Positions 1 to 57,185 of a stretch of 64,000 nucleotides of DNA are shown here, piece after piece. The notes under the pieces were generated by a model. That model did no database searches. It was not told the DNA's origin and was given only the letters and a program-made list of their open reading frames with translations. Location: the NCBI GenBank assembly GCA_040285855.1, contig JAUFOQ010000016.1:806001-870000 (forward strand), in the 5' to 3' direction. The stretch's first letter is position 1. Each line of letters starts with the position of its first letter. The translations under genes and the position numbers were made by a program. Source of the stretch: Eukaryota sp. GEM-RC1 (taxonomy: Eukaryota).

Positions 1-636
1 AACAAGAAAAATCTAATCAATTAAAAGAACAATTGGAGTTGATTAATCAAAATTATAGTTCTGAATCCACGCAACTGTCAACAGAGTTGTCCAATTTGAA
101 GGAAAGTTATTCTCTTGAACAGGAAAAATCTAATCAATTAAAAGAAAAATTGGAGTTGGTTAATCAAAATTATAGTTCTGAATCCACGCAACTGTCAACA
201 GAGTTGTCCAATTTGAAGGAAAGTTATTCTCTTGAACAGGAAAAATCTAATCAATTAAAAGAACAATTGGAGTTGGTTAATCAAAATTATAGTTCTGAAT
301 CCACGCAACTGTCAACAGAGTTGTCCAATTTGAAGGAAAGTTATTCTCTTGAACAGGAAAAATCTAATCAATTAAAAGAACAATTGGAGTTGGTTAGTCA
401 AAATTATAGTTCTGAATCCACGCAACTGTCAACAGAGTTGTCCAATTTGAAGGAAAGTTATTCTCTTGAACAGGAAAAATCTAATCAATTATTGACTGAA
501 TTGAATCAATTAAAAGAACAATTGGAGTTGGTTAATCAAAATTATAGTTCTGAATCCACGCAACTGTCATCAGAGTTGTCCAATTTGAAGGAAAGGTACT
601 CTCTTGAACAGGAAAAATCTAATCAATTATTGACTG
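1..636 (+). repeat. 108-bp coding tandem repeat, about 5.5 near-identical copies
   Basis: aggaaaaatctaatcaattaaaagaa... recurs at 108-nt intervals, with one 21-nt insertion near 490. Confidence 0.95.
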
Positions 637-860
637 ATGACGTTTTGCCACTATTTGGAGAAAAGCTCACTTTAATGACTGAGCTCAATAACCTCCAATC
701 AATTAACGAATCAGTGTTATCAAAATATTCTTCTCTTCTTGTCAAGTATAAGGAACTTGGTGTATCTTCAAAAGCCGAAAAGGATCGTAATGGACTTCTC
801 AGAAGAAGACTTGCCAAGAATAGCAGGGAACCTCCAATCAAAATTAAAAAGGTGTCATAG
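1..860 (+). CDS. Coiled-coil protein with 36-aa tandem repeats, 5' end outside the window
   Basis: ORF 33..860; unit QLELVNQNYSSESTQLSTELSNLKESYSLEQEKSNQ repeated; stop at 858-860. Confidence 0.7.
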   Translation, partial: QEKSNQLKEQLELINQNYSSESTQLSTELSNLKESYSLEQEKSNQLKEKLELVNQNYSSESTQLSTELSNLKESYSLEQEKSNQLKEQLELVNQNYSSESTQLSTELSNLKESYSLEQEKSNQLKEQLELVSQNYSSESTQLSTELSNLKESYSLEQEKSNQLLTELNQLKEQLELVNQNYSSESTQLSSELSNLKERYSLEQEKSNQLLTDDVLPLFGEKLTLMTELNNLQSINESVLSKYSSLLVKYKELGVSSKAEKDRNGLLRRRLAKNSREPPIKIKKVS

Positions 861-2199: not shown

Positions 2200-2468
2200 C
2201 AATCAACAACTTAAAACACCGCAACTACCCCTTCACAAAATACAACACGTTCAGAACACGTTCACACTCAACGCCGTGTTCAAACACGCCCGGTGTTTTC
2301 CGTACTATGATTTGAACTAATATCATTTTGAATCACTTTCTTTGGCTGTGGTTTTCATTTCAAATGCATAATACATTCTCTCCACAGTTTGGCACATTGG
2401 GATCCACATTGCGAACCACAACGAGCCACTCATTTGCAAGCCTTTTAGGACGAGCTAACTTACAAGAT
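2200..2468 (-). ncRNA. Candidate Fanzor omega-RNA scaffold
   Basis: Starts at the Fanzor-polyprotein stop codon; stems at 2457-2465/2434-2442, 2382-2387/2346-2351 and a perfect 9-bp 2291-2299/2213-2221 enclosing a cgtgtt/aacacg hairpin. Confidence 0.45.
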
Positions 2469-5400
2469 TCAGGATTCCGGTTCTTCATTCTCTACTTGTG
2501 AGTCTTTGGGTACATCTTTCTGGTCCTTACTTGGACAAGTTGTTTTGTTATGTCCTGGTTGCCTACAAATCTTACATTTACGAGGACTTTTAGGAGGCAC
2601 AGGTCTTTGAGGACACTTTGCCGTTGTATGGCCTTCCTTATGACAAAACTGACACTTACTCACACTCTTCTTCTTCTTGGGAACCTGATCTGTAATCCCA
2701 CCATCCTCGATAGTTATTGTTTGAGATTTTGGTCTCTCGAGGACAGCAGGTCTACCTTGACCTTGGATAATTCCATTTACAATGTTATAAATGTTAATAG
2801 CAGAGTTGAAGTCTCTATTCCAGAGGACATGACATTTAGCACATTGGACTAAGCCCCATGGTGAGACTTTGTTGCTCTTTAATCTTTCTTTCATGAATGG
2901 CAACTGTTTGGTCCATTCATCATCAAAATTACGTTTCCCAACATTGCCTAATTGATTGTGTTCTATCACTTCTTTTTCAATTTCTTCTCCTCCTTCTGTA
3001 ACTTCTTCTTCCACAGAGGATCAATGACTTTGACAAAGTCAGGATTGGAACAGATACCTTCCTGGTTTTCATCAGCACAAGCAGAGCAACATTTGCTTGT
3101 CATAAATTCATCAACTAAGAAAACTTTAAATCCAAGTTTTCTTAGCAAGTTTCGAAGAGTAGCTCCTTTTACTGTACTTGCCTTACCCCTTCTTCTTCGG
3201 AATAGAGTGTCATTCCAATCTCCAAAACCAACAACAACTTCATCTGGATCACCATATTGGAGAGCAAATCTGTGAACCAAGTTTTGTTCACTTCGTTCTT
3301 TTCTTGAATATTGGGTAAGGCGTCTACGTCTAAAAAATTTTTCCTCATAAAGGCCTTCTGTTGCAGCAGGTATTTGTTGAGTTGGTCCTTTCTTAGGTAG
3401 TTTCTTTGATGGTCCTTTCTTAGATAGATTCTTAGATGGTCCTTTCTTTTTAGGTAATCCTTCAGCAGTTGCTTTTCCAGTTGTGGTTGATCTCATTAAT
3501 GCACAGAAAACTTCATTGTTAACAATGTACCTTGAAAATTCTTCCAATTTACATGATTTTCTTCTTGGAGTATCAGAACTGTAGGAATCCAGTACTTTTG
3601 ACCATTCCACACACTCTTCTCAAACTCAGTTGAGTACCTCTGTAAACGTTCACTTTCAGTCAATTCGACAATGTTTTTGTTACAGCGCTTTCTTTCAAGT
3701 TTTTTGAAATTTCGTTTTTCCTTTCGTTCCTTTTTAGATTTTTTTCTTTTTTTCTTTCCTTGTCAATTCTTTTGGAACTGTGATGGCTGATTTTTTCTTG
3801 GTTTCCATTTGGATTTGTTAATATCTGCCTTTCTCTCCCCAGCAGTGTATCGGAACACCTTCCATTTGTCACGATTTTTCCACTTTACAGGTTGTGGGTT
3901 AGTGTCTTGCTTCCAATCATTTAATTGTTTTTTCATTTTTTTCAAACTTCCCCTTTTCTTAGAAGACAATGGAGCAATCTTTCTTTTCTAACTAGAGTAA
4001 CTGGCTTGGGCTCAATTTCCTTCTCACCTGAGCAATCATCCTTCTCAACTGAGGAATCAATAGATTGTCCATTGGAAGCAAGATCAACTTCTGTAACACA
4101 AGCATTAGTCATTCCATTTTCTATCAATTGTTTTGTTTCATCAACTTCAAATTTCTCACACGCCTCTTCCTCATCAGTTTTTAAACTTGCACAATACATG
4201 AGATCATGTTGGTTGGGGTCAACAGCAACAATTCTCTTAGATTTTAAATTCAGTTCTTCAATTTCATCTTCACTTAAGGAATCAATATAACGCTCATTTG
4301 AAGCAAGATTAACTGCTGTAACATTTTCACGGGCATTTCCATTTTCATCAAGTAAATCTTTCCTCATCATCAACAAACTACAACTTAAACCGTCTGACGA
4401 AATTGAAGTGTATTTAAAGTCATAGGATAAAGACTCTGGAATAGCCTGAGGTTTTAATACTGAATTCCAAATAAGTTTCCGTACTTCATTATAGTTATAG
4501 GGAAGATCCCTACAAAATATTTCGTGAAACCATGCCGTATCGAACCTGATATGATTTGGAATTAAAGATTTAGACAATGGGAAAGGATTGTTTGCTCTTA
4601 CACCAGGACAATAGTCTTCAATGAGACGGTTCAAATACAATGCATGACTTAAAAAGTATAACGGATCACTCTTTTCGGCATAGTAGATCGTTTTCTCCAT
4701 CTTTCCTTCAAAATAATTAAACAAATAATTGAAGAATAGTATACTCAAGTGAGATTCCGGATTGGTAAAAACTTGCTTGTCATCAAAATTGATTTTGGAA
4801 ATTTCACCATTAATGATCAATTCTCTAACTTCATTAATCCTTTGACAGAGTTCTTGTCTTTCAGTTTTGTCAGTAAGAGCTTCCATTCTCTCTTTCTTTT
4901 GAGTAACCAAGTTAAAGACTTGAAAAACATACTCATGAAAGTGTTGGCACATGTTGTTCTTATAATTAGTAATAATTTCGGTTGCAACGTAACCGAGAGG
5001 ATTAGCCAAATATAATCCACTTGGAAACACGATCCTATCTTTACCAACCATTTCACCAGCAGTTTCTAACAGAGGGATGTAGTTTGATAGGAAGTGTTGG
5101 GCGAACTCCTTCTTTGTAGTTGTTGTTTTAACATTAGAAATGATGTTGTTTAAAGAGTTTTGCACAGTTTTAATATGATCAGTATTGTTGAAAAATTGGT
5201 GATTTGGAATCCACATCATGGCCAACAGTTGTCGCATTGGACCCTTCTTAAAATAAGCTCCCCAGTTTGGTAACTCAAATTTGGTAGTTTGAATTTTAGT
5301 AAAAAGGTCAAGTTCAGGTTCACCAGTTTCATTTTCAATACTGTCTTCATCTAAAATTTCCGATTCAATTGTACGATCGCAAACAAAATGAGGGTCTGAA

Positions 5401-8400
5401 GACACAGGCAATTCAGTTTCTTCTTCTAATTGTTGAGGCACAAACTCTTCACTTAAAATTTCTGTTTGTTCAGTGTCTGAAACTTCAGTGGCTGTTTCAA
5501 TTTCTTCTTTAACATTGGGAGGTAGTATCTCTTTGACCTTGTCGAAAATTAGAGAGTTGTGAAACTTAGTAACGAAAAAATGTTTCAACATATGTGTACC
5601 ACGAACTCTGACTTGATGAGCTCTCTTAGCACAAGATTCCATCCAATTCGCTTTAGTCTTTGATACAACATTATCTAATCGTTTTTTCACCGCCTTCATT
5701 GGTGGTCGTTCTCTTAATTTTTGCTTCTTTTCATCGAGAAGATCAAAGAGAAGGTATTGTATTAGAAACAACTTATTGATTGAGTTCATTAACAAAGTGG
5801 CTCTCGAAGTTTTAGATTCCCAAAGTTCATTAAATTTTGTTAATTCTGCTAACAATCGAATCTCCATTTCAGCCTTGGGTTTTAGTTTCACAGATGGCGC
5901 TTTGTTTTGACGTTCGTCAGTTTTAACCTTAATTTCTTCATCTGACACTAGAGGATTGTCTAAAGAGTGAAATATTCTCTTAAGGAAGATATTTTCATTG
6001 TCAAAACTTTCAAATGTTCTTGAATGATTATTCATGTCCATCATAATTGTTGTCACGTTTTCCAAAAACCGACCTCTTCTAAAGACATACAACTTCTTCA
6101 ATACTGAATTCAAGTCAAGGGAATAAAAGGGCCAATTTCCGTTGGTTTGCACCATCTGTGGAACCAAGATGGAAGAGAAGAAATGTAATCATCAATTGTA
6201 TAATCAATGTCAATTTCTAATTTTTTAAATCGTGATACTAAAAACGGAAAAGTATCTAAATGCCAATCATAACTTATTAACAAACTGGGCTTGTTAAGAT
6301 TTAAAAATGTAATGAAATTTGTTAACATTGATTTTTCAGTTGTAAACGTGTGAACTACACAATTAGGAAGTGAAATTTCTGAAACATTATGGGTGAATAT
6401 GTGAGTTTCATTCGCAAATCTATCATGGGTAAACTGAAGAGAGATTGACACAATTGGGTCTAAATCTGGATCACGTTGAATTTCAAAAGTAGTGTCCTGA
6501 ATTTGTGGAATACCTTCTGAAGTTGATTCAATCTCTTCGTCTACTTCTGGCTCCTGTTTAACTCGAACGACTTTAAGATTCAAGCGTTCAGGATCTGAGA
6601 TCACACTTTTTATCCTCAATTAAGCAGAACTTTTGTGGTTGTTTGGGTTCTTGTTCTGTAATTGATGGTTTAGGAGTTGGAGACGTGGGAACGGGTTCAG
6701 ACACGGTGGTCACAGAAATGTTAGTTTGAGGAGTGATACCAGTTGATACAAGGGAGTTGGTTGTTCTGGATTCCTTTTGTTTAATTAGAGGTGAACCTCT
6801 TGGTGATGCAAGTTTGGGTTTACTTTTTTTGGTGCTTAAACCAGTGGATGCTTTAGTGCTAGCTAGACGCAAACCTGTGAGAGACGCAGGAACAGGTTTT
6901 GATACAGTCGGTGGCAATAAGTTAATGGCAGAAACTTTAGTTTGAGGAGTGGCACCGATTGAAATACTTGAACTGGACAAACGTTTTGGAGGGACGGCTG
7001 GCATTTTTGGCACATGCGACAAATCAACAGGACTAAAAGTTTCAAAATGTTCCAAAATTTTACTTCGAGACTCGTGAACAGCAATAGTGGTGCTACACAG
7101 CAGTTCTTTAACATCAGTCCACCTTATGACCACAGATTGATCTAAATTCATTAAAAGTTCAATGTATTCGAGAACACAAAAACCAGAGTCAGTTAGAGTA
7201 TGTTTGATATTTGATGGAATAAATTCTATATTTCTGGTTCCACAGAATGACAACACTGAATAAATTTGTGAAACAATTAAAAATAAATTGGAGGAAGTTG
7301 GTGCAACTGGCGATTGGTTAGCAGGAAATTCTCTGGCATAATCATCCTCAACGTAGGTCGGATCAATGAATAAAATATGACTTGTAGGAGATGAAATGAT
7401 CAGAATAATTAAACCCCAATGACGACCATCAGCAGTAAGATCACACATTGCACTATTGACAGGAATAAGTAGCATTTGTTGGTGTTTCTTTTCACTACAT
7501 TGGAAGAATTTCTGTGTCAAAAATTCTGAAAATGGATATTTATAATAGGGTTGGTCACCATATAATAACGGATATAAATCAGTTGGCCTAATTACATGGT
7601 CATAAAAGATTAAACCTTTTGATTCCACAAGTATTTTGGAATATTTGATGAACAATTGATCGTCGACATAAGTAAACAATTTCTGAATCTGTTTACGGAG
7701 ATCTGCAGCATTAAGTTCAATGTTAACTTGGATTAAAGCACGTTCAATAGAGATCAAAGATAGATTGATGCCATCCCTTGAAATCAGTTCAACAAATTTT
7801 TGAATATAACCAATAACATAAATACCACAGTCATTAGGAGTCTGTGTCTTGGTGATGTTGACCCTCTGTACGTTCAATGTTACTTTCCTACATAATTCAT
7901 CTACAACAGAACTTAGATAAGAAGAACCAACAATTGGATCCACAAATATCACGTTGTTTTCCGCACAGTCTATTACCATTAGACCCCAATGAACTCCTCC
8001 AGATCCACCTGTTGTATTCATAGCATCGTTGAGAGGAACAGCGAAGTATCTGGTGCTTCTCTCCCGGGCGTCATCAATCTTATTTTGGCAGTATCCATCA
8101 GTTAAAAAATCTGACCACATCTCATCTGGAGTAATGAAATAGCATTCCCAATCAAGGTTTGCTTCTTTGAATAGGTGTTTTGAGTATTCAGAAAGGGCGT
8201 AATCATCTATCCATTGGCCAGGATTCAGATACTCTAGGGAGTCTTTGGACAACGGTCCGGGATTGGACTCAATGTCACCGTCGGCGGTGAGGTCTTTTGG
8301 GAACGGAGGATGGGAAGGGATAACACATGAATAGAAGTAGAGTACATACAACAGCAGAGATGGAAGTGTTTTCACAACATAGAAAAAGCTATCCATATAT

Positions 8401-8735
8401 CGACTCAACGGAGATAGAATCCAAGCAGGGGATTCCGCCTCATATTGGGTCAAATACAAACAACAAGGTGGCAGCATGACATCAACGGGAGAGGAGAAAA
8501 AGCTATCCATATATCGACTCAACGGAGATAGAATCCAAGCAGGGGATTCCGCCTCATATTGGGTCAAATACAAACAACAAGGTGGCAGCATGACATCAAC
8601 GGGAGAGGAGAAAAAGCTATCCATATATCGACTCAACGGAGATAGAATCCAAGCAGGGGATTCCGCCTCATATTGGGCCAAAAGAGGAGCCTTGTACGGA
8701 ACAGAGTGTCTGTTAGAATGTAAAACAACCAACAT
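2469..8735 (-). CDS. Frameshift-interrupted polyprotein: leader, 2A, two SENP8/Ulp1-like protease domains, PolB-exonuclease-like domain, Fanzor1-like nuclease, two CCHC knuckles
   Basis: ORFs 6588..8735, 6110..6619, 3942..6167, 3763..3969, 2966..3610 and 2469..3014 overlap or are bridged by short open frames; conserved domains run across the junctions; every junction lies at a homopolymer. Confidence 0.7.
2740..5699 (-). CDS. Fanzor1-like (TnpB-derived) RNA-guided nuclease domain
   Basis: N-terminal MKAVKKRLDNVV..HQVRVRGTHMLKHF, HIRFDT, ISSDGLSCSLL; RuvC-I IVAVDPN (D 4218-4220); FRYT; VGFGDW; RuvC-II LVDEFMTSKCCSAC (E 3107-3109); CAKC..WNRDFNSAINI (RuvC-III D 2811-2813). Confidence 0.9.
5970..6500 (-). 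other. Degenerate family-B DNA polymerase 3'-5' exonuclease-like domain
   Basis: PDLDPIVSIS...FTTEKSMLTNFITFL...PSLLISYD...FPFLVSR...LDLNSVLKK...LENV follows the PolB exo pattern DPxIxI...ExxLLxxF...PDIIxGYN...FDxPYLxxR...lDl...LxxV. Confidence 0.55.
7040..7620 (-). other. Second SENP8-like domain, probably inactive (catalytic Cys to Ser)
   Basis: LIPVNS...HWGLIIL...LFIDP...HTLTDSGFCV aligns with the first domain, with DSG in place of DCG. Confidence 0.7.
7690..8250 (-). other. Ulp1/SENP8 (C48)-like cysteine protease domain, catalytic residues intact
   Basis: GQWIDD...VPLND...GGVHWGLMVID...FVDP...QTPNDCGIYV; resembles SENP8/DEN1 GGTHWSLLV and QQNSYDCGMYV. Confidence 0.85.
8253..8294 (-). 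other. 2A StopGo ribosome-skipping peptide DLTADGDIESNPG|P
   Basis: Exact match to the D(V/I)ExNPGP consensus, with the usual upstream GD. Confidence 0.85.
8381..8677. repeat. 114-bp tandem repeat, about 2.6 identical copies
   Basis: agaaaaagctatccatatatcgactc... starts at 8381, 8495 and 8609. Confidence 0.95.
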
Positions 8736-9280
8736 TTGTGGAGAGAGGAAAATGAAATGTTTCAGTCATCCCTGTAGTCTAGACTACAGTACAATTCTAC
8801 TATCACTTGTAGTCAGTAGAGTGTCAAAACATCAAAACAACTCTTATGTTATACCATCATCCGTTACCATTAGTGATTACTTAAGAAGTCTTTAAGACTG
8901 TCAATCGTATAACCAAACTCATTGACTTAGTTCTCTTCTGAATTCATTTGCTATAAAGCCATGTATAGTCGTAGACGAGAAGAAAATGAATTAATTCCAA
9001 TAAGTAATGAAGTAATGAATGTAAATTCACTTGTCTGGAACGAAATCTGTAATAAAGTCTATACCAGAATTTCCCATGTCCTACTCAATCTTCAAACTCA
9101 GAAATACTTCTGAACAAGAAAGTCGTTCCCGTACCATCAAAACATATATGAAACTTGTTGTAAAGCTTGCTGATAAGTATGCAGTTAACTTGTCACTTGT
9201 TCTTCTTCCTTATGGAACATACAATTCATGGAGAACTAAATCCATCCACATAACGGAAGTGTCAACATCTGACTTACCAG

Positions 9281-9471
9281 ATGTTGTAGTTACAAATGTT
9301 GTAGTTACAAATGTTGTATCACCAAATGCTGTAGTTACAAATGTTGTATCACCAAATGCTGTAGTTACAAATGTTGTATCACCAAATGTTGTATCACCAA
9401 ATGTTGTAGTTACAAATGTTGTAGTTACAAATGTTGTAGTTACAAATGTTGTCATTACAAATGTTGTAGTA
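9281..9471. repeat. 15-bp minisatellite (atgttgtagttacaa / atgttgtatcaccaa)
   Basis: About 13 tandem units visible directly. Confidence 0.9.
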
Positions 9472-9599
9472 CAATGTATACTGATAAAAATACACACTTT
9501 AAGAATACTGATCTAGTCCTGTGGGCCAAAGAAACCTTCAATTTTGCAGCACCTTTTGACGAAGTTTCTTTGGCCTCTTTCAAAAACTAGATTCCTTCG

Positions 9600-9971
9600 A
9601 TGAGTAAGGATGATTCCACCCGCACTAGTCGCAAACTAGACATCAATTTCATAGAAGACAAAGCTCGGCGCCACATCTGCTTTTCAAAGCGACGTTCTGG
9701 TCTTGTCAAAAAAGCTCATGAACTATCTATGCTAACTGGAACTGAGATTCTTCTAGTCGTTGTTAGTGAAGTTGGTAACGTCAATTGCTATGCTTCTGAA
9801 CGTTTTCAACCCATACCCAACTCTCGTCAATTACACTCTCTTCTTCATACTTGTCTAGTCTCCGAAGAAGCGGAACCGGAAGCTCTTCCTGATACACTCT
9901 CTTCATTATCTCTCCCAGACTACCCTTTCAAACAAGTAACGGATCCGTTTGACTCTTCGCCATCCCCCTGA
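9600..9971 (+). CDS. SRF-type MADS-box transcription factor
   Basis: RKLDINFIEDKARRHICFSKRRSGLVKKAHELSMLTGTEILLVVVSEVGNVNCYAS. Confidence 0.9.
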   Translation: MSKDDSTRTSRKLDINFIEDKARRHICFSKRRSGLVKKAHELSMLTGTEILLVVVSEVGNVNCYASERFQPIPNSRQLHSLLHTCLVSEEAEPEALPDTLSSLSLPDYPFKQVTDPFDSSPSP

Positions 9972-11720: not shown

Positions 11721-11911
11721 ATCTTTAAGGATATCCTACTTTGCAAATATTCAGTCAAGCTTAACACACCAGATATGACGACCACATTTCTGTTTCTGTC
11801 CAACGATACGAAGCATGTCTGAACAGAAGGAACTTGTCTTGTATAAAAATTACTTTTGTCTCAACTTATTTTTTGCCGGCACCTTCTTCTTCCTACACCA
11901 CATCCACAAAC

Positions 11912-13102
11912 ATGGCACATGTTCTCCATTCCATTGAGTGCATTGTCTTGGAGATACTCAATTGCATTGCGTCAGGAGAATCTCCGGTGATTCGACTCCC
12001 AAAAGGCGATCCTAACGTATACTTTCATGAAGTTGACAACGTGTATAGGACTGTAGGAGCAGATGATCGTGCTCTTGTATCAGTCTCTCTCCAAAAGGCC
12101 GGAAGTTCATATAAATTTGGTATATATCATGTTGGAGAGTTAATCCTAGATGTCTTGTTACGATCACTGACAGTGATATACGAGCTTGTTCAAAATAACC
12201 AAAGAGCAACCAAGAGGTATCATTCCGTGATTTGATTGATCGTAGAGAATTGTTTTATTCGGATCCTGCTCTGTTCAAAACACAGAGGACTAGTGACCAA
12301 GCCCTTTCGGATTGGAGTCGATTACTGTCCGTACCCAGGAACAATTTGAATGTATATGCCGAGGCTAAAGGAGTCGTTTACGGTGACCTAGTGTACTACG
12401 ATGGACATCACGCTGTTAACTGCAGATCATCACCTCAGGGAATACCAATTACTCCGTTTATCCAGAATATCTCAGATATCACTTCCAAAAACCTTCAATA
12501 CATCATTGTTGTTGAAAAGGTATCCATCACAAGATATTTAACTATAGGACGCAGCCCTCTTTCGACTCATTGAAGACGATGTCATTTCGACAATTGGATC
12601 TAGTGTTCTAATAACAGGCTGTGGTTTTCCGGATTATGTAACTAGAGCATTTCTCTACCAACTAAGTATTAGGTTTCCAGATGTCCCAGTTATTGGACTA
12701 GCTGATGCTGATCCTTATGGCCTTGACATATTATGTATGACATTTTCTAATTCTATTCTAATCCTATGTACTTATAGATTCGGAAGTTTAGCTGCTGCTG
12801 CAGAAGAGAATTTAGCAGTTCCAAGACTGAGATGGCTTGGTGTCACTGTTGATGATCTATACAACTTCGATATTCCAGAATCTGCTCTACTTCCTTTGAC
12901 ATCAACTGACAAGAAACGTGGAGAGAACATGTTGGATAGAGATTGCTGGAGTGTTGCCCCTCAATGGAAAGAACAACTAGAAAGAATGCTTGAAGCATCT
13001 CAGAAAGCAGAAATTCAAGCCCTGCTATCAGTCGATGGTAACATGAACTTTCTTTCACAACAATACATACCATCAAAGCTGAGCAATAAACTACTTATTT
13101 GA
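11912..13102 (+). CDS. SPO11: Meiotic recombination protein SPO11 / Topoisomerase VI A, intron-containing
   Basis: Splicing of 12120-12149, 12217-12245 and 12520-12547 restores TKRELFY (catalytic Tyr), VEKDA, TGCGFPD, DADPYG and KAEIQAL; a fourth intron-like segment lies at 12735-12767. Confidence 0.92.
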
Positions 13103-14516: not shown

Positions 14517-17375
14517 TTACCGTCGGGCAAAATGGCTATTTAACACTCTTATTAGCCTTTCTTTCTTTACAGGCTTTTCCAAAAACCCATCACACACAGA
14601 CAAACAAGCATTCATGGTCTCCAGATTTAGATCTGCAGTCAATGCGACGATTGAACTATTCTGTAACCTGTGGAGGGATTCATAATCTCGTATTCTTCTT
14701 GTTGTTTCAACACCGTTCCAAGGTTTCATTCGATAATCCATAAGAACCAATGATATTTCTTGGTGTTTAGCCGCATACACGACGAGGGCTTCAGGACCAG
14801 AGCTAGCAGTGAAGACTTCTGAACATCCAATAACTTTCAAGAGTTTTGGAACAGTTTTCAATATCATTGGGCAGTCATCAACAACTAAGACTTTCCAGTC
14901 CCCAGCAATTAGTCTAGGATCCTCAATAACATGCTGAATCTGTTCGGATCGAAGGAGTTTTGAAAGAAGAGACGAGTACGTGGCTGGTAAGGAGATAACA
15001 TTGTCTCCAAAAGACTGAACAGGTTCGACACCAGATTTTGGATCTACTACAAGGACAATCCTAAAAGTAGACACTATCCGAGGATGTTCAAGAACGTGGG
15101 CCATATGAGATTCAATGAACACAACCACAGGCGTCTGTTGTTGAACTACATCTTCTAGCAGATCAGAATCTTCTGAATCCTGAAAGTGAACCTTGCAAGA
15201 CAACATTGATAATTGATCACTAAGGTGTTGGATACTCAACAGAGTCGTGTCTCGAGCTATAATGATGCATCGCATATCTTGAAGAATTGCAATGTATTCT
15301 GGTGCTGTTCGACTCAGTTTTGGCCTTGTGGCAGACAAAGTGAAGTGGAATCGAGATCCATGACCGAGTCGTGACTCTACCTCCAAATGGGTTCCCAATT
15401 CCTTAGCAAGTTTGTTTGACAAAGCGAGACCCACTCCCATACCTTCGTGTTGAGTTGGATCTCCCACACGAAAGTCTTGAAATAAGGTTCTAATGGTTTC
15501 TTTGTCAATTCCGATTCCTGAGTCACTAACTTCACAAAAGATGTCAATTCCAGTGTCCGTGAGTTGTCTACAGACCATCTTCACTTTGATGTAACCTTTT
15601 TCTGTGTACTTCAGTGAATTTGATACGAGTATGAACATGATTTTTCGAAAATGATCAGGCAAAGTTGATACCTCAACATCACAACGGGGATCAACATAAA
15701 GATATATACGAAGACCTGAGGTTTTAGGCTGGAGCAAATCTACCAGAGAATCCGTTATTGCAACAAGATTGATTGATCGTTGTACTGTTGTCGGAGATGA
15801 AGGTGAAGATGGAAAATTGTACAAATCAACAATATTTTGCAACATATCATGCAGCTTCTGACTTTCCTCAACTATTATTGAAGAACTGTCGGTAGGCTGC
15901 GTCTCTTCAAGTGCCTGGGCAGCAGACAAGACTGATGTTAGAGGTGTAAAGAGGTTGTGACTCATCAGAGCCAAAAACTGGCTTCTACTTCTGTTGTACT
16001 CCACAGCGGAATTTCGAGCGACTCGCAACTCCTTCTCCTTGAGAATCCAATCTGTTATGTCTTGAACAACTAATATTCTCACTGAGTCATGTCCACACTT
16101 GTTTTGCACATTTGTTAACTCTACAAATCGGCCTGTTTTCAATTGTATCCGTGGATGTATTTTAAATGACTCGTCGTCAACATCCACATTGATGACGGAA
16201 CCTGCGTGTTGGGGATTTAAGAATGCTTGACACAACAATTCAAGAAACTGGCGTGAGGATTTTGATTCATACGGTTTAACACGAAAATCTTCACTTATTC
16301 TCTTGTTACAGAAAATCACATCAGTATCTGAAAACAACACAATGCCAACTCTTGTGAGATATGAGACATCTTCAATAACAGACACCAGTAAATGTAGTTT
16401 TTGACTCGATGAAAGACATCGAGAACGGTAAGTCACAACTAACTCTGGCTCTTCGCCTAGAAACAACAGAAAGTGATCAAAGGTAAGGGATTTCTGCATT
16501 TTTACTTGAGCTCTGGTTTTCCCATCAGATAAGGTTCCGGTGGACTTATGTTTCACCTCAGCAATATCACCCTGAAGTAGCTGCCTGTTTTGTTGCAAAG
16601 CCTTTTCTGCAGTTTCATGATCCAAAAACTCAAACAATGTTCTTCTTTCACTACTGTTTCCTTCAATTTTCGAGAGATGCATCATTGCTGAGTTCATGTA
16701 ACAAAGGTCAGTTGGGGACTGATGAATGGCGATGGCATATGGAATTCTATTCAGTATATCATCCAGCAGTTTCCAGGCGAATGTTTCGTAGATGAAAGTA
16801 ATAGAACCTGCGAGGGCATGACCAGACTCACAAATACAAACCTCAGCAAGATGGTACTTCCAGTCAGTGCCCTTCAACCAAGTATAGTAACGAACAAGGT
16901 TGATATCAGGATTACCTTTAAGTTTCTCACAATGATCAGTCCACATGTGCTTGTGTTCATCTAAGTGCAGATCTTCCATGACAGATGCATAGTTAGTGTC
17001 ATTGTGTAGCTGCAATTGATGGACTATTGTGTCGTCAAGATAAAAGCAGTCGCACTTGTTACATACGTAAAAAGTACTTACATGATGGATTTGATGAACG
17101 GAATTCAACCACGAGGGGACATGACGTGTACCAATAGCAAAGTGGGAATCGCCAGTATCATGAACCACTGACCACTGAACAGGATTTCCTAGTAACAAGG
17201 AACAAGATTCATTTAGACCATTTGATTTTAGCTGATTGGAATTGAGATTTGGGAAAAGATTTGTTAGAGATTGTCCAACAATACAGGTTTCAAAAGCATC
17301 TTCAGAGAGATCATTACAATGGACTACTTGACCAGAGGTTGTAGAGTACATAAGGAAAAGAGGATCATCAGACAT
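14517..17375 (-). CDS. Hybrid histidine kinase (PAS-like, HisKA, HATPase, receiver), paralog 1
   Basis: FLALMSHNLFTPL, LVSNSLKYT, EVSDSGIGI, GMGVGLALS, VLVVDD...LVLMDYRM...FLEKP. Confidence 0.9.
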   Translation of the reverse strand: MSDDPLFLMYSTTSGQVVHCNDLSEDAFETCIVGQSLTNLFPNLNSNQLKSNGLNESCSLLLGNPVQWSVVHDTGDSHFAIGTRHVPSWLNSVHQIHHVSTFYVCNKCDCFYLDDTIVHQLQLHNDTNYASVMEDLHLDEHKHMWTDHCEKLKGNPDINLVRYYTWLKGTDWKYHLAEVCICESGHALAGSITFIYETFAWKLLDDILNRIPYAIAIHQSPTDLCYMNSAMMHLSKIEGNSSERRTLFEFLDHETAEKALQQNRQLLQGDIAEVKHKSTGTLSDGKTRAQVKMQKSLTFDHFLLFLGEEPELVVTYRSRCLSSSQKLHLLVSVIEDVSYLTRVGIVLFSDTDVIFCNKRISEDFRVKPYESKSSRQFLELLCQAFLNPQHAGSVINVDVDDESFKIHPRIQLKTGRFVELTNVQNKCGHDSVRILVVQDITDWILKEKELRVARNSAVEYNRSRSQFLALMSHNLFTPLTSVLSAAQALEETQPTDSSSIIVEESQKLHDMLQNIVDLYNFPSSPSSPTTVQRSINLVAITDSLVDLLQPKTSGLRIYLYVDPRCDVEVSTLPDHFRKIMFILVSNSLKYTEKGYIKVKMVCRQLTDTGIDIFCEVSDSGIGIDKETIRTLFQDFRVGDPTQHEGMGVGLALSNKLAKELGTHLEVESRLGHGSRFHFTLSATRPKLSRTAPEYIAILQDMRCIIIARDTTLLSIQHLSDQLSMLSCKVHFQDSEDSDLLEDVVQQQTPVVVFIESHMAHVLEHPRIVSTFRIVLVVDPKSGVEPVQSFGDNVISLPATYSSLLSKLLRSEQIQHVIEDPRLIAGDWKVLVVDDCPMILKTVPKLLKVIGCSEVFTASSGPEALVVYAAKHQEISLVLMDYRMKPWNGVETTRRIRDYESLHRLQNSSIVALTADLNLETMNACLSVCDGFLEKPVKKERLIRVLNSHFARR

Positions 17376-17735
17376 TGGTTTTTAAAAATGGGATCAGCAT
17401 TTATGGAGATCCTATTGTTACTGTAAAAAGGACTACAGGAGTCCCCGTATCATTAAAATGATACCTGCCCAAAGTTGAAACTGTAGTCATCACTGAGATC
17501 CAATCTCAAAAGGAAACCACAGCAGTAACCCCCACTGAATTTCTGTTTCAGAATCTCTATACTATGAACCACTTTGTCATATTCTCGTCACAATAGAATT
17601 GAGGATCTGATACAAAAATGTATACGAACAGTAAATTGTATGTTTGAATATTTATCTGACAGTCTTCGCCACTTCGAAACAATCTGTTACACAGTGGAAA
17701 GACTGGGTTGTAGCTAAACATTACAACTTGTTGAA

Positions 17736-20594
17736 TCAATCTACGAGAAGGCGAGCAAAATGGCTGTTCAACACCCCAACCAGTCTCTTCTTTTCCACTG
17801 GTTTTCCCAAGAATCCATTAGTAACAGTTAAGCAAGCATTAATAGTCTCTAGAGTAAGATCTGCAGTTAACGTGATGACAGTTACTCCTTGTAACCCATT
17901 TTGAGATTCATAATCTCGCATTCTCTTTGTTGTTTCAAAGCCATCCCAAGGTTTCATTCGATAATCCATAAGAACCAACGATATCTCTTGATGTTTGGCC
18001 ACATACACTGCCAGTGCTTCAGGACCAGAGCTCGCAGTGTAGACTTCAGTACACCCAACTACCTTCAAGAGTCTCGACACTGTCTTGAGAATGGTTGGAG
18101 AATCGTCAACAACTAACACAGTCCAGTTACCAGTAATTAGAGTAGGATCTTCAGTGATGTGGCGAATTTGCTCCGAGCGGAGGAGTTGTGAAAGAAGTGC
18201 AGAGTAAGTTGCTGGGATTGACATCATATTGTCTCCAAAAGATTGAACAGGTTCAACACTGGAACTAGGATCGGTAACTAAAATGATTCGAACTGTGGCT
18301 AATGCAGTTGAATTATGAAGAATGCGAAACATTTGGGATTCAATGAACACTACAACAGGGGAAAGTCGTCTAACATCGTCCCTAAGTAGAACAGGATCAT
18401 CTGAATCCTGAAAGTGCACAACAATGGACAACATTGACAGCTGTTCACTAAGGTTTTGGATATACAATGTTGACCTATCTCTAGCTACCAGGATGCACCG
18501 CATACCTCGAAGAATGGTGATGTATTCGGGTGATGAAAGACCAAGTTTTGGTCTTGTGGCGGACAAAGTGAAGTGGAAACACGAACCATGACCGAGTTCT
18601 GACTCTACCTCCAAATGGGTTCCCAATTCCTTAGTAAGTTTGTTTGACAATGCGAGACTAACTCCCATACCTTCGTGTTGAGTAGGATCTCCAACCTGAA
18701 AGTCTTGAAATAAGGTTCTAATGGTTTCTTCGTCAATTCCTTTTCCTGTATCACTCACTTCACAAACCATATCAGTTACATTGTCGGTCAGTTCTCTACA
18801 GAGTATCTTCACTTTAATATGACCTTTGTCTGTGTACTTCAATGCGTTTGACAAGAGACTGAACATGATTGTTCTGAAGTGGGCAGGTATGGTGGAAATA
18901 ACAACATCACAACGGGGATCAACATACATGAAAATCAGAAGATCTTCAGTCCGCGGTTGAAGCATGGCAACAAGGGAATCCGTAATTGCGACAACATTTG
19001 CTGAAGTTTTGATGGTATGTTTTGAAGTGGATATAGTTGGGAGACCTGACAAATTTAACATATTTTGTAACATGCCATGCAGCTTCTTGCTCTCTTGAAC
19101 AATTAACGTAGAACTCTCTGTAGGCTGTGTCATCTCAAGTGTTTCGGCAGCAGACAAGATTGATGTTAAAGGTGTAAACAGATTGTGACTCATCAAAGCC
19201 AGAAACTGACCCCTGCTTCTGTTGGATTCGGTTGCAGAATTACGAGCTACTCGCAACTCCTTCTCCATGATAATCCAGTCTGTTATGTCTTGAACAACTA
19301 AGATTCGCACCGGTGGTTGTGTCCTGCTCTTGTTTTGAACATTTGTCAACTCCACAAATCTTCCTGTTGTTAATTGTATCCGTGGAAGTACTTTAAACGA
19401 ATCATCATTAACATCCACTTTGATAACAGATGCTGCGTGTTGAGTATTAATGAAAGCGTGACATATCAAGTCAAGAAATTCCTGAGATGATCCAAATTCA
19501 TAAGGTCGAACAAGAAAGTCTTCGCTGATTCTCTTATTGCAAAAAACAACATCAGTTTTTGAGTATAACACAATCCCAACTCTTGTGAGATATGAGACTT
19601 CTTCAATGACAGAAATAAGTAGATGCAACTTCTGACTTGCGGAAAGATACTGAGATCGATACGTACCAACAGTTTCTGGATCGTCACCCAACAATAACAG
19701 AAAGTTGTCAACAGAAGTTCTTTTTTGCATTTTGACCTCAGCCTTGGTTTTTCCATAAGTTGACTTCTGCTTGATCTCAGTAACATCACCCTGAAGTAAC
19801 TGCATGTTCTGTTGCAACGCTTTCTCCGCAGCTTCTTTATCCATACATTCAAACAGCGATCTGCGCTCACTGCTCTCTCCTTCGAATTCTGAAAGATACA
19901 TCATTGTCGAATTCATGTAGCAAAACTCTGATGGAGAAAAGTGAATCCCAACAGGATAAGGAATTCTATTGAGTGTGTCGTCCAGTAGTTTCCAAGCGAA
20001 AGTTTCATAGATGAAAGTAACAAAGCCAGTGAGAGCATGACCAGACTCAGAGATACAAATCTCAGCAAGGTGGTACTTAGAGTTTGAACCCTTCAACCAA
20101 GTATAGTAACGAACAAGGTTGATATCAGGGTTACCTTGAAGTTTCTCACAATGATCAGTCCACATGTGCTTGTGTTCATCTAAGTGCAGATCTTCCATAA
20201 CAGAAGCATAGTTAGTGTCATTGTGTAGCTGCAACTGATCGACTATTGTGTCATCAAGATGAAAGCAATTGCACTTCTTACACATGAAAAACGTACCAGT
20301 GTGATGCATTTGAAGAAAAGAATTTTGCCATGAGGGGACATGTCGTGTACCAATAGCAAAGTGGGAATCGCCAGTATCATGAACCACTGACCACTGAACG
20401 GGATGTCCTAGTAACAAGGAACAAGATTCATGTAGACCACTTGTTTTTAGCTCATCGAGATTGAGATTTGGGAAAAGATTTGTTAGAGATTGTCCAACAA
20501 CACAACTATCAAAAGAATCTTGAAGAAGTTCATTACAATTGACAACTTCCCCAGAAGTGGATGAATACATTAGGAAACGAGAATCGTTCAGCAT
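17736..20594 (-). CDS. Hybrid histidine kinase, tandem paralog 2
   Basis: Same architecture and length (952 aa); MSHNLFTPL, LLSNALKYT, DTGKGI, LVLMDYRM. Confidence 0.9.
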   Translation of the reverse strand: MLNDSRFLMYSSTSGEVVNCNELLQDSFDSCVVGQSLTNLFPNLNLDELKTSGLHESCSLLLGHPVQWSVVHDTGDSHFAIGTRHVPSWQNSFLQMHHTGTFFMCKKCNCFHLDDTIVDQLQLHNDTNYASVMEDLHLDEHKHMWTDHCEKLQGNPDINLVRYYTWLKGSNSKYHLAEICISESGHALTGFVTFIYETFAWKLLDDTLNRIPYPVGIHFSPSEFCYMNSTMMYLSEFEGESSERRSLFECMDKEAAEKALQQNMQLLQGDVTEIKQKSTYGKTKAEVKMQKRTSVDNFLLLLGDDPETVGTYRSQYLSASQKLHLLISVIEEVSYLTRVGIVLYSKTDVVFCNKRISEDFLVRPYEFGSSQEFLDLICHAFINTQHAASVIKVDVNDDSFKVLPRIQLTTGRFVELTNVQNKSRTQPPVRILVVQDITDWIIMEKELRVARNSATESNRSRGQFLALMSHNLFTPLTSILSAAETLEMTQPTESSTLIVQESKKLHGMLQNMLNLSGLPTISTSKHTIKTSANVVAITDSLVAMLQPRTEDLLIFMYVDPRCDVVISTIPAHFRTIMFSLLSNALKYTDKGHIKVKILCRELTDNVTDMVCEVSDTGKGIDEETIRTLFQDFQVGDPTQHEGMGVSLALSNKLTKELGTHLEVESELGHGSCFHFTLSATRPKLGLSSPEYITILRGMRCILVARDRSTLYIQNLSEQLSMLSIVVHFQDSDDPVLLRDDVRRLSPVVVFIESQMFRILHNSTALATVRIILVTDPSSSVEPVQSFGDNMMSIPATYSALLSQLLRSEQIRHITEDPTLITGNWTVLVVDDSPTILKTVSRLLKVVGCTEVYTASSGPEALAVYVAKHQEISLVLMDYRMKPWDGFETTKRMRDYESQNGLQGVTVITLTADLTLETINACLTVTNGFLGKPVEKKRLVGVLNSHFARLLVD

Positions 20595-20942
20595 TGGTTT
20601 TGAGGATGCAGAAGCTCTACAGAGATATGATGTATTAGTACTTCTAGATATAAGATATCCTAACCGAGAATATCTTCATCGCATCAGACAGAAAAATCTG
20701 TTAGAGTTATGTTTGATTGACATTCATTTACATACGCTGCAACAAGTTGAACAAATTGAGTAACAGCAGTGGGTTCTGTTGTAGAACACTTCAATAATAA
20801 CGATGTCATAAAGTCTACATTGTACATTTAGTAGGATATAACTTGAAGAGTCTTAAATGAAAACGGGCCTGGTGAGGCTTCAGAAATAGCCTCTTTAAAG
20901 TTGGAGAAACACAATTGTTTGAAGCTAGAGCCATTTGATCCT

Positions 20943-36906: not shown

Positions 36907-37349
36907 GTTTGATGGCGGAAATTATGATGAGACTTTATTTTTGGCAAAGAGTCTACAAACTTTTGTTCTCCTAACTTAGGAGTCCTAAGTATATACTCTA
37001 GATTTGTATAAACTGTACTTATCAGTCGTAAATGAAGATAGATACATCCATCACTTGAAAAATACATTCTTTAAATGCACATGTATTTTGTATCGCAGCT
37101 TAATCCAAATTGACAGTAATTGACTGTGAACTTAAGACAACTGGTATGCATTGAAGAAAAACATAGTACATATCGATACTTGAAGTTGAGTTTAGTGAAT
37201 TACACATACAGTACTTTCTGTTCTGTAACAGATATAATTTAACGACCTCTAAAGACACAAAGAGAACCTAGCATTCTAGAAAAGAATTCAACATTAAATA
37301 TTAACCAGACTAAATAAATACATTTGCAACAAAATCAATAGACAGTCTG

Positions 37350-37958
37350 TCATCGTCTTCTGAGACGATAGAATCGATACCTGCACTGAATGTCAGTACG
37401 GTTATCCAAATGATTAGAGATAAGACGCCAGTTTCCAACACCATGTTCTTTGGTTGCTGCAAGTAGTAGTTGATCTTCATCGGCTGTCCAACGTCCTAAA
37501 GTAAGTCAAAATATTGAGAAAATACCTTTCTTGATGTCCATTCGAAGGACACGGTGATAACGTTGACTACATTGGTCACTAGTCTTTCCTCCAACACGAT
37601 CAGCGATAACTTTCCAACCTCTCCAGTCATTTGAATTTTGAGCGGATTCAACAGCTTCTAGCAAGACTCTATCTTCCTGTTCCGTCCAAAAGTTGTTTCT
37701 TTTGCGTCGATATTGAGGAAGATCTTGATACACATCATTTTTTGAAACAGAAGGTGAATAATCTCGTGGTAGAGACTTTGCAGGTAGTTGTGGTGTTAGG
37801 ATCTTCAGGTTGAGGTTGTCCAACGGAAGTTCTTCCGAAGATCCCTCCATAAACGACTTCAAATGATTATATGCTAGCACTAGACGTGACGTAGGACCCA
37901 GAATCAAGTCAATCACAGCATCTGAATGTGGAATTGCGTCGAAAGGATCGTTGCCCAT
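37350..37958 (-). CDS. Two-repeat Myb/SANT transcription factor, copy 1
   Basis: WTEQED...W..IA...KTSDQCSQRY; intron 37496-37525 restores KKGRWTADED...W..IS...RTDIQCRYR. Confidence 0.88.
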
Positions 37959-38366
37959 ACTTTACAGCGGATTAACTTTACAGTTTTTCTCAAACTACAG
38001 ATTCCTTCTCTACAATAGTTCCATTGCTTGATCCTTTGGATATACATCATCTTTCTTATCAGACACAGAAGCTCTCTGACTCAGTTTTGTTTGTTGTTAT
38101 CTGCTTTCGAAATGACGACATGCAAACAATGTTCTTTGACAAACACTGCATTGTCATCACTGATTTCTGTTAATGTTATTTTGTGATATTGGTATTACCA
38201 TGATCAATCTATTTCTTGACGTTGTTTTCAGTTGGTGACAGTTACAACTAGATCTTCTGCGTTTCTCATTCTCTTTCCACTTAGCTACTTCTCTTGTTAG
38301 CTGTATCGTGGATTTCTTTTAAAGATACTCGAAACTACCAGATTAAACACATTTCATCACTCACTT

Positions 38367-40314
38367 TTATATCAAATTGAGAAATTTGAACATAAAAACG
38401 AGACATAAACTCAAACAGGAAAGCCAAGAGAAAAACAATCGAGATTTCACCGTCATTTTCTTCATGATTACTAGGGAAACAACAAGAACATAAAACAGAA
38501 ACAAACCAATGGTCAAAAGATAAGGAATCAGCAACGCAACCCTTAACTGAAAGGGATACTCAAACAACAATAAGGGCACACCCATTCCTGGCGCTTGAGG
38601 AATAACTGAAACAATCAAGAGAATTATGAGAAGAAGATACAAGGCAGACAACGTAGAGAAATATATCTTTAGAACTCTAGAATTGATTGAGGAGACAATG
38701 TCAATAAAAGATCTTCCAAAAGAAGTCATTCGAATGCTATACTCTTTAACTAGAAGTGGTTGTCTAACATCAGAGAGACATCTAAAGACTCAGATGCATT
38801 GTGTCTCTTCCTATTGATGAACCAAACAATGGGAGTCAACAAAAAGAAACCAGTATTCAAAACCAAGATCAATAACAATACGGCTGATGATTGCAGGAAT
38901 GACACACGGATGTAATCCATGGGCATCTCAATAGAAAGCAGTGAATGACCATTAGTTGAAGTTGAAAAGTAGATTCGTTCAAAAGAAACTGATACATTTG
39001 AGAATCTGTTAACAAAAAGGTTACTGTCTTTTGGGTGGTGAACATAGCTATTTCCAAGCATTACTAAACATCCACTCTTATCAACAGAAACCGACACTCT
39101 CATAAAGAGAGCAACAATCTTGGCTTCAGTTGAGAAGGAAGATCTTAAAGGGTGATACTGACCGGAAAACTTCTTGGAGATCTTGGCATCACACTTCCTC
39201 AGTTGTTCATCGTCAAAACTTTGAGGAAAGAACTTGTCCATGAACAGAGAAAACACCTTGTAGTGCTCATTTCCAGTCCCACCGTTAAATGAAACAAAAA
39301 GCCAAGATTCAAGGATTTCACCAGGTATAATCCTGAATGGAAGTTCATAGTGTTACCTCCATGTTTTAAAACTCGATGACCATTGATAGAATCTTCCATG
39401 AACCCAAAAGCCATCCCACTCATAAACTGTGAAGCAGAAAAGTGATGTTCATGCATCAATTCAATAGTTTCGGGTTTGAAGATTCTAATATTATTAAATG
39501 TACCATTATTTAAATGCATTAACATGAACTTTGACATGTCTAGAGCTGTAGTAGTCAAAGCACCAGCTGGAGAACCAGGAATGAGCTCAAATGGAGCTTG
39601 TACCCATTCATTTCCAAGTTTTCTGTAGACTTGGGTCATAAAGGGCAATAACTTTCCAGATAATGGTTGCTCAAAGGTAGACATTGACATTGAAAGCGGT
39701 GAAAAGAAGGTCTCTTGAAGGTAGTCATTAAAAGACTTCTTCGTTACTCTTTCTACAATATAACCAGCTAGAGCAGTGGCATAGTTGCTATAAGCAGAAG
39801 CTTCATTGGTAGCAAATACTCGTTCTGGCAAGAATTCTTTACAATACTTCTCCAGAGAGATAAGTCTGTCAGCAGAAAGGACAAACAAATGATCTGATTG
39901 ATCTTCAAAACCTGAACGGTGTAACAAGATGTGACGAAGAGTAATTGTACCATGTTCTTGGGACCAAAGACTGTCATTGGGAATGGAAAAGTCTAGGTAG
40001 TTGTTAATGTCTTCATCCAGATCAATTAGACCTATTTCATACAGTTTCATGATAGCAGACCAAGTGAAAAGTTTAGAAACTGAGCCTGGGCGAAATAGGC
40101 TGAGGTCTGGAGAGGTAAGAGTATGAAGATCTTGCTTCCCGAATCCCTTCTTGAGCAAGAGTTGCCCTTCGTAGACAATGGATAGGGTAGCAGCTCCAAT
40201 ATCGTGTTCGCTTAATTGAGAGTTGATAACTCCATCCAAGAAGATTTCAGCACTGTTTAAATCTAAGGAAAGACAAGAAAGGAAGATCGAAAACAAAATT
40301 ATGAGACTTTTCAT
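38367..40314 (-). CDS. Serine beta-lactamase/PBP-like hydrolase with signal peptide and C-terminal TM helices, copy 1; two apparent -1 frameshifts
   Basis: SxxK (GSVSK), YxN (YSNY), HGGN; breaks at 39296-39300 and about 38784-38786. Confidence 0.8.
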
Positions 40315-40462
40315 AAGTGATCGGTGTTTGCTTGTAGCAAATGAATCAAACGGAAAGTGTTAACCAGTACTGTCAGTATACGTCATAGAGTTTATTCTCT
40401 TGAACTACATTGAATGGTGTTGTCAATCAGCTGTTACTGGATATTTATTTCAACTATTGTAC

Positions 40463-41258
40463 TTACAACTCGTGATCCATATCATTGTCCATATCATTGT
40501 CCATATCATTGTCCATATCGTTATCCATATCATTCTTGGGTTTCTTTGCAAAACAGGGTTCATCAGTTCCATGACATACCATGGGATCCTGCCAGAATTT
40601 ACAGTAACTACAAGGAGGACAAACAGTTTTGGGTAAGAGCTTGATACACCAATCAGGAAGGCGGAGATGGAGTTTTTGTTGAGGCTTCTTCTTCATGTGC
40701 TTGGCCACAGTCAATTCTAGGTCCATTTCAAGGAATTCAGTGTCTTCTTCCTTCATTCCAATAGTACCCTTGTAAACCATCCATTTGCGGAAAGATGACA
40801 ATTTGAGTTCCACTTGGTCCTTGGAGTCAATGGTTCCCTTTACGTGATAACTGGAACATGAATCTGTGGAGAGTTCGCCCATTATTCCTCCTTTTCCATC
40901 AAAAGTTAGTTGAGCTTCAACTCCTTCCTTCGAGTATTGATGACTCTTTTGCCATGAACAGTCTTCTTATAACCGAACCATAGTCCGTGACCTTCCAAAA
41001 CATCAAAGCGGCGATCAGACCAGGGATAGCGGGGGCAAATAGGACTTCCATCACAGGGGATGTCCAATCCTTGGCAAACTGGGATATCTAACCAAGTCTT
41101 GCAGTAAGACTCAGAATCAAACATCTGACAGAACTCATCACCAATGAGAGGTTCATCTATGTGGTGCTTGTTCTTTTCACAAGATGCGAGAACAGTATAG
41201 ACAAATACAGTTCTGGAGTGAGACTTATATAGACATACACTAGTAGTAGGAGCTTCAT
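40463..41258 (-). CDS. Secreted/ER protein ending (DMDN)n-DHEL, copy 1; 1-nt deletion at 40947-40950
   Basis: Inverted copy of the intact gene at 46942..47726. Confidence 0.7.
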
Positions 41259-47726: not shown

Positions 47727-47874
47727 GTACAATAGTTGAAATAAATATCCAGTAACAGCTGATTGACAACACCATTCAATGTAGTTCAAGAGAATAAACT
47801 CTATGACGTATACTGACAGTACTGGTTAACACTTTCCGTTTGATTCATTTGCTACAAGCAAACACCGATCACTT

Positions 47875-57001: not shown

Positions 57002-57185
57002 TGGACTGAGAGGATGAATGATTACCTGGGAAGCATTTTTTCAACCAGAACACAATAGGTCAAAATTACCTTGACTTAATCGATTCTTTTTGAGCGAAGA
57101 AAATTCTTGAGATATCAGTCTTTTAATTCATTATTGGCTTCAATTGAAGTTGTAGTTGCCTGTTTGGAATCTCCACTGTCCACTC

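Follow-up and report, generated by a model that had tools for sequence, protein, structure and literature searches.

Can an RNA-guided nuclease of the Fanzor1 type be part of one long protein with proteases and an exonuclease, and what might such a protein do? The question is raised by a minus-strand element at positions 2469..8735 of a 64,000-nt stretch (the window) of contig JAUFOQ010000016.1 (GCA_040285855.1, positions 806,001 to 870,000) from Eukaryota sp. GEM-RC1, which a sequence-only reading had taken for a single self-processing polyprotein of ~2,090 amino acids (aa) with a 2A motif, dual proteases, a PolB exonuclease-like domain, a Fanzor core and zinc knuckles. All of these motifs lie where that reading placed them, and its arithmetic is right (8735-2472 = 2,088 codons), but the full two-protease chain was found in no record. 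The element in the window is a copy, with frameshifts, of a mobile protist gene that exists in many copies. The idea of a single polyprotein survives for the family, whose form is a one-frame fusion of 2A, accessory domain and Fanzor1, but not for this copy, which is broken, nor for the two-protease version, which was not seen.

A one-frame fusion in the family

Relatives were collected with phmmer, searching the open reading frame (ORF) ORF3 against 1.84 billion representatives (209 matches, 150 listed). After cluster look-ups and two word searches, the set came to 105 proteins under two organism labels, four window-encoded proteins being excluded. The closest carry the NCBI label Eukaryota sp. 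GEM-RC1 and are 91-97% identical to the window per segment. The gene is multicopy: 101 proteins bear this label, and two C-terminal clusters have 14 and 26 members. More distant related proteins are labelled TZLM3-RCL (RCL1 type). Both organisms are skoliomonad metamonads (PMC11316075).

Two predicted proteins of the related protist, P0010 and P0175 (1,473 and 1,479 aa), combine the 2A motif and the PolB-type exonuclease with a complete Fanzor1 in a single protease-free chain (Pfam: exonuclease E 5e-13, TNB zinc ribbon E 2e-7). Of the four proteins in their cluster, two are full length. P0194 (1,040 aa) joins the 2A motif, one Ulp1 domain, the exonuclease and the N-terminal half of Fanzor. In the window copy itself the ORFs are not in one frame, with six or seven breaks in all: five single-base shifts (J1 ~6615, J2 ~6125, J3 ~3985, J6 ~3597, J7 ~2977) and, at 3810-3735 (J4/5), an in-frame stop or a pair of compensating shifts. 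J1 is in frame in all four copies of family A, to which the window belongs, and J2 in 14 of 14 family B, five of five family C and three of three RCL1 proteins. Within family A, J3 is bridged by two copies of two and J7 by 11 of 12 (a pattern tally misses P0223 and P0237 owing to substitutions; tblastn puts both in frame), and no copy spanning J4-J6 was found among the 105 related proteins. The family B proteins P0229, P0236 and P0237 (644 aa) begin upstream of RuvC-I, extend to the end and bridge J3-J7 throughout, and in the recombinant P0007 an A-type protease 2 is joined in frame to a B-type exonuclease and the start of Fanzor. Taken together, paralogues bridge every window junction. Judged by these predicted proteins, the fusion is established for the family; the two-protease chain of 2,090 aa we only infer, because it is pieced together from overlapping fragments.

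The accessories are modular, with none to two proteases, none to two knuckles and four swappable leaders ahead of the 2A motif. Since the protease is missing from intact relatives and so dispensable, the defining feature is the join of exonuclease and Fanzor, which, as far as sequence can tell, is the constant novelty of the family. The leader swaps at 2A and the A/B recombinant P0007 show recombination among copies. In P0012, RuvC-I runs straight into the second half of the zinc finger; either the copy has an internal deletion or the gene model is at fault.

Compared with in-frame paralogues, an A or T run lacks one base at four of the five mapped shifts, and the fifth has an extra base. No certain nonsense substitution was seen across the ~2,088 codons. 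In family B, one A run is broken in 16 of 17 records. These recurrent breaks in the same run, together with a T-run break in both copies of a duplicated host gene of the window, fit uncorrected long-read error in repeats. The skoliomonad assemblies were built from Nanopore reads with Illumina correction, and their repetitive fractions are 48% and 28% (PMC11316075). The breaks may be long-read assembly error, slippage decay or inherited lesions. Introns were considered and rejected: host introns are ~28 nt long (GT..AG), whereas paralogues align across the mapped junctions with a one-base difference.

In a 69-row Fanzor alignment, 61 rows of which come from other sources, the exonuclease occurs only in two RCL1 proteins and C48 in none. 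Among the 150 of 209 matches listed, exonuclease, protease and 2A are confined to skoliomonad-labelled proteins, and at other Fanzor loci all 124 Fanzor ORFs (median 663, maximum 921 aa) are without the three. Scans of viral and metagenome contig DNA with ORF3, and of viral contigs with an alignment of the accessory region, returned no relative, and C-terminal alignment scans of contig DNA returned distant Fanzors only (22-37% identity), which served as controls. In a FastTree phylogeny of 88 rows (one row dropped for low coverage, no outgroup root), ten Fanzor rows, from the window or with a skoliomonad label, group as a single clade (SH-like 99). This clade and the path length of 2.4 between the window and RCL1 proteins indicate that the fusion is old and has been kept. 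A literature search met no report of such a Fanzor fusion; precedent could be held by the figure on Fanzor-associated domains (Fig. S1B, PMC10530073), Repbase or subscription papers. The two earliest Fanzor papers mention neither exonuclease nor Ulp1 in their supplementary text, though one picture-only file (PMC10432273) could also contain a precedent, and the skoliomonad genome paper has no mention of Fanzor. The fusion is a new architectural variant of Fanzor1. As a side observation, some metagenome Fanzor ORFs (L027, L034-L042; 855-921 aa) have ~400 N-terminal aa outside the Fanzor1 profile, with no Pfam match in the two that were scanned.

Fanzor1 core and accessory domains

Table 1. Features of the element, all on the minus strand, in window coordinates
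Feature	Position	Motifs and sites	Reading
Variable pre-2A leader, 160 codons	8256..8735	2.6 copies of a 114-nt repeat at 8381-8682	
2A (StopGo) motif	8253..8300	DLTADGDIESNPG/P; 8276-8253	Consensus match; skipping predicted from motif
Protease domain 1, Ulp1/C48	7680..8250	His-Asp-Cys and oxyanion Gln; His motif 7991	Predicted active
Domain 2, Ulp1/C48-like	7030..7675	Catalytic Cys replaced by Ser; His motif 7421	Predicted inactive pseudo-protease
Ser/Thr/Pro/Lys-rich linker	6635..7029	Stretch common to families A and B, where P0007 switches family	
PolB-type 3'-5' exonuclease domain	5730..6634	Broken by J1 (~6615) and J2 (~6125)	Carboxylates lost
Fanzor1 core	2700..5726	WED/REC from ~5726; SDG 4400; broken by J3, J4/5, J6, J7	
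Fanzor1 catalytic sites		RuvC-I D ~4220 (AVDPN 4226-4212); RuvC-II E ~3109 (VDEFMTS 3115-3095); RuvC-III D ~2813 (NRDFNSA 2819); split C4 finger 3091/2843 (CCSAC 3091, CAKC 2843)	
Two zinc knuckles, CX2CX4HX4C	2535..2654	2654-2613; 2576-2535	Motif match
Candidate omega-RNA scaffold	2330..2470	Three hairpins straight after the stop codon	Weak evidence

The complete Fanzor1-type core that had been proposed was borne out. The RuvC D, E and D residues and the zinc finger are present, and the profile matches SpuFz1 with E 1e-128; across SpuFz1, PpFz1 and GtFz1 the matches range from E 1e-128 to 1e-80, and DPN, the Glu position, the WED T/SDG and NRD are alike. AVDPN aligns with DPN of SpuFz1, and the WED motif, SDG in the window and TDG in P0236 and P0175, aligns with its TDG. 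The RuvC-II Glu sits six residues ahead of the zinc finger (VDEFMTSKCCSAC), the rearranged position by which Fanzor1 is recognised (PMC13565253, PMC10711439). The order in the 2013 spacing rule of Bao and Jurka, D-X(125-275)-[TS][TS]XX-C4 finger-X(5-50)-RD (PMC3627910), is kept; the D-to-TS distance (~370 codons in the window, ~280 in P0236) lies above its range because of insertions. Compared with known Fanzor1 proteins, long insertions lie between RuvC-I and II and within the finger. Pfam matches the TNB zinc ribbon of the window weakly, in two halves. The D, E and D residues are kept in all 21, 26 and 29 proteins matching the three motif patterns, which themselves require these residues, so that copies having lost them are uncounted.

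The fold was checked through a relative. A model of P0176 (935 aa, of the P0010/P0175 cluster; pLDDT 79.5) matches SpuFz1 in Foldseek with E 5e-20 and TM 0.81, and the Fanzor2 structure 9b0l with just E 0.05; a model of P0194 from a 14-row alignment (pLDDT 29.9) was not used. P0236 and SpuFz1 match pairwise with E 2e-15. Known Fanzor1 proteins are stand-alone ORFs of ~600-900 aa, whereas here the exonuclease is joined directly to WED, and 2A, proteases and knuckles are added. The two zinc knuckles are present as first described; their number is two in family A, one in family B, two in a third C-terminal type (P0213) and none in RCL1. The candidate omega-RNA scaffold scored z -2.5 (3 of 200 shuffles) as the best of six 3' windows tried, with overlapping windows at z -1.3 to -1.7 and unrelated windows reaching -3 in a sliding scan, and Rfam gave one sub-threshold match (E 0.42).

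The PolB exonuclease-like domain is recognised by Pfam (DNA_pol_B_exo1, E 6e-8) and by profile matches to Pol delta and archaeal PolB (E ~1e-6). Pfam found no DNA_pol_B polymerase domain in the window or its relatives, where Fanzor comes directly after the exonuclease; the join is direct, because the Fanzor profile begins a few residues past the last exonuclease helix, at the WED strand. Under the DEDDy test, the Exo I and Exo II carboxylates of the window domain are replaced and the Exo III pattern is absent. RCL1 proteins keep all three, as SFDVE (Exo I, DxE), YNCDKFD (Exo II, NxxxFD) and YCxND (Exo III, YxxxD), with Exo II aligned to Pol delta and Exo I and III assigned from the general consensus. 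In-frame versions of the domain, 29-45% identical to that of the window and with structural residues in common, persist in four divergent families. One giant-virus contig encodes a Fanzor and, within a few kb but in a separate ORF, a complete family B DNA polymerase (L112:5888-9691), an arrangement that is a possible setting for exonuclease capture.

Of the dual proteases, two C48-like domains are indeed there, but only one is predicted to be active, the other being a pseudo-protease with Ser for Cys. Pfam recognises Peptidase_C48 in domain 1 only (E 1.7e-6). Its motifs HWGL, FVDP and QTPNDCG align to solved CE-clan proteases, the best of them bacterial (E 1e-7), with SENP8, the relative named in the sequence-only reading, at just E 0.21. 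The triad is kept between families at ~40% identity; in P0184 the catalytic Cys is changed to Phe. Domain 2 is similar to domain 1 (BLAST E 3e-9) and to Atlas C48 clusters (0.95, 181 features), and one Atlas cluster close to it comes from Nucleocytoviricota; on its own it has no PDB sequence match below E 0.4. TDSG, with Ser at the catalytic Cys position, is found in the window and in all seven copies reaching that site. By their residues, half of the accessories in the window copy are catalytically dead.

The 2A consensus GD(V/I)ExNPGP is found in the window, where the exact motif has a single occurrence in six frames. Nineteen relatives carry the motif, with NPGP intact in 18 and changed to NLGP in P0177. 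Four different leaders precede this near-invariant 2A, two of them found on both families A and B. The non-LTR retrotransposons L1Tc, Ingi, CR1 and Crack likewise have GD(V/I)ExNPGP near the N-terminus of one long ORF, and a 2A motif alone is insufficient for skipping (PMC3708506). Self-processing, as first proposed, is thus backed by the 2A motif but not by any protease site: a Gly-Gly site was looked for in the inter-domain linkers of P0175, P0194, P0185 and P0244, and none was found.

How the element might spread

As the sequence-only reading had noted, no transposase is recognisable in the locus, and no transposase ORF was found in its flanks. A search for terminal inverted repeats (TIRs; 8700-9600 against 860-2470) gave a best inverted match that was equalled in 35 of 100 shuffles. 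With neither a transposase nor a significant TIR found, mobilisation in trans becomes the default, as in other transposase-less Fanzor1 families. MCi-2 and CMe-1A are alike in being multicopy Fanzor1 elements without TIR, transposase or an identified mobiliser, and in MCi-2, too, the 5' regions vary ahead of a 3' Fanzor part that is constant (PMC3627910). They differ in that no fused exonuclease, protease or 2A is described for them in the available part of that paper, and MCi-2 has target-site duplications (TSDs) of 11-12 bp. Spu-1 has 30-nt inverted repeats, whereas none were found for the window element. Two minor observations concern the flanks: a weak inverted match at 1508-1531 and 8764-8792 does not rise above shuffles, and four of the seven window matches to CTACAGTA/TACTGTAG lie in the element flanks (1266, 1417, 1509, 8784).

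On balance we lean, with modest conviction, towards a multicopy Fanzor1 element whose intact form is one ORF, probably engaged in RNA-guided homing and moved in trans by a separate transposase. The add-ons likely help the element to copy itself into breaks predicted to be its own. The intact order would be variable leader, 2A, none to two Ulp1-type proteases, PolB-type exonuclease, Fanzor1 and none to two zinc knuckles. Skipping at 2A, an activity presumed from the observed motif, would shed the variable, repeat-derived leader, so that the N-terminus of the remaining ~1,930-aa chain would be fixed. Guided by an omega-RNA from the 3' end, Fanzor would then, like SpuFz1, cut empty sites ~16-21 nt from the insertion point; catalytic residues and fold were observed, and RNA and cutting are presumed. 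The offset would result in a 3' tail not matching the donor next to the element, which the tethered 3'-5' exonuclease could trim so that repair synthesis copies the element. In the window subfamily, where catalysis is lost, the exonuclease domain would at most bind DNA ends. Protease 1 might remove SUMO, NEDD8 or ubiquitin at the site, as proposed for the Ulp1 of Ginger and Mutator, with protease 2 only binding.

Parts of this cycle have counterparts elsewhere. In T4 td intron homing (I-TevI and gp43; PMC2988022), an offset cut is followed by degradation of the 3' tail by a PolB exonuclease, and this 3'-5' exonuclease affects homing efficiency; there it belongs to a separate host polymerase, whereas here it would act as a stand-alone domain fused to the cutter. 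TnpB-driven retention is a further precedent (PMC10055086). In Ginger1 and Mutator-like transposons (PMC2836005), C48 is also fused to the main enzyme of the element and has been proposed to act on SUMO/ubiquitin signalling in transposition; it sits on a DDE transposase in those elements, whereas here it is N-terminal on an RNA-guided nuclease, with one domain predicted active and one dead.

Several points weigh against homing by an intact single chain moved in trans. In the window DNA, ends, TSD, target-adjacent motif, omega-RNA and mobiliser were not found. The two-protease chain was found in no record, nor by a word-based search at 1,310-3,740 aa, which is insensitive since it also missed P0010. 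The relatives are gene predictions. The J2 break is the same in the window and all four close family A copies, and this shared break, together with the A-run break shared in family B, means that most copies may be dead or recoded. In families A, B and C the exonuclease has lost its catalytic residues, a loss that weakens a general role in tail trimming and means that trimming cannot be essential or has been reduced to end binding.

Spread by one chain without any transposase, in which Fanzor1 cuts, the exonuclease trims as the element's own end-processing helper, Ulp1 resets host repair signalling and the breaks are repaired from other copies, tens of copies arising through homing or recombination, is in our view unlikely. 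It would fit the lack of a transposase ORF and of a significant TIR in the flanks, the dozens of dispersed copies and the frequent module swaps between families, and T4 td homing can use one-sided homology with microhomology (PMC2988022). However, an omega-RNA guide taken from the element's own flank would target the empty allele rather than new sites, and all classified Fanzor elements sit in known DNA transposon groups in the available part of PMC13565253. The search covered the window flanks, so that a transposase may lie elsewhere in the genome.

Quite unlikely, too, is that the copies are dead cargo, frameshifted founders amplified in trans with accessories that are captured passengers without a role in Fanzor action. 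The shared breaks, the dead protease 2 and exonuclease, the varying number of accessories and the single copies hit in catalytic motifs (Cys to Phe in P0184, NPGP to NLGP in P0177) are as this would predict. Yet the exonuclease stays in frame in four families at 29-45% identity, with intact catalytic motifs in RCL1, the protease 1 triad is kept at ~40% identity, and ORF3 is open for 737-751 codons in the window and P0244.

We doubt strongly that J2 is a programmed -1 ribosomal frameshift yielding mostly a product of two proteases and half an exonuclease, with little Fanzor-bearing chain. An in-frame X XXY YYZ heptamer is present at the site, the window and its four close copies stop at the same place, and other 5-base T runs are intact. 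No downstream stimulatory structure was found (z +0.6, +1.0), however, and the position is in frame in all 22 proteins of other families; family B has its near-universal break elsewhere, a residue across the heptamer is altered in P0244, the duplicated host gene has a like T-run break in both copies, and the short product would end within a folded domain. Highly improbable is a virus-type polyprotein from which the CE-clan protease releases separate exonuclease and Fanzor proteins: 2A with a CE-clan protease is reminiscent of viral polyproteins, and the Nucleocytoviricota cluster near domain 2 points the same way, but the linkers of the four proteins contain no Gly-Gly site, intact relatives lack the protease, the exonuclease abuts Fanzor with almost no linker, the flanks are host genes and the accessory region has no relative in viral contigs.

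What biological role Fanzor cutting plays has yet to be settled (PMC10432273). An old natural Fanzor1-exonuclease fusion points to events after the cut and makes eukaryotic restorative homing testable. With it, editors that pair a nuclease with an exonuclease have a natural counterpart, and an RNA-guided element joins those that use 2A at the N-terminus and have captured Ulp1. The intact relatives of 1,473 and 1,479 aa are the objects for study, the window copy being a poor experimental object.

Host setting of the locus

The element is flanked by host genes (MADS box, Spo11, dynein), and the window is eukaryotic. The Spo11 gene lies at 11765-13102 (+), with short introns of ~28 nt (GTAT..AG). 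An ORF of 4,104 aa in the same window, presumably a dynein heavy chain as read by eye, is unbroken. The duplicated host gene belongs to a 4.1-kb inverted duplication (37296-41428 and 46769-50898, 97.8% identical) that contains a Myb-like gene and a gene whose two copies both break at the same T run; by eye we take the latter to encode a serine beta-lactamase/penicillin-binding family protein. At 55318-57040 (-), a presumed ferric-reductase-like gene, so read by eye, runs across three frames, and no short intron was seen at either of its two frame changes.

Flanking ORFs at 1-860 (+) and 9025-9516 (+) are made of 117-nt and 15-nt tandem repeats. A 291-aa ORF at 54181-55056 (+) has no Pfam match and presumably resembles the zinc-finger/restriction-like endonuclease end of a CRE-type non-LTR retrotransposon. 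Two tandem intronless ORFs at 14517-17381 and 17736-20675 (-), with a DNA identity of 77%, are by eye presumed to encode hybrid histidine kinase-response regulators.

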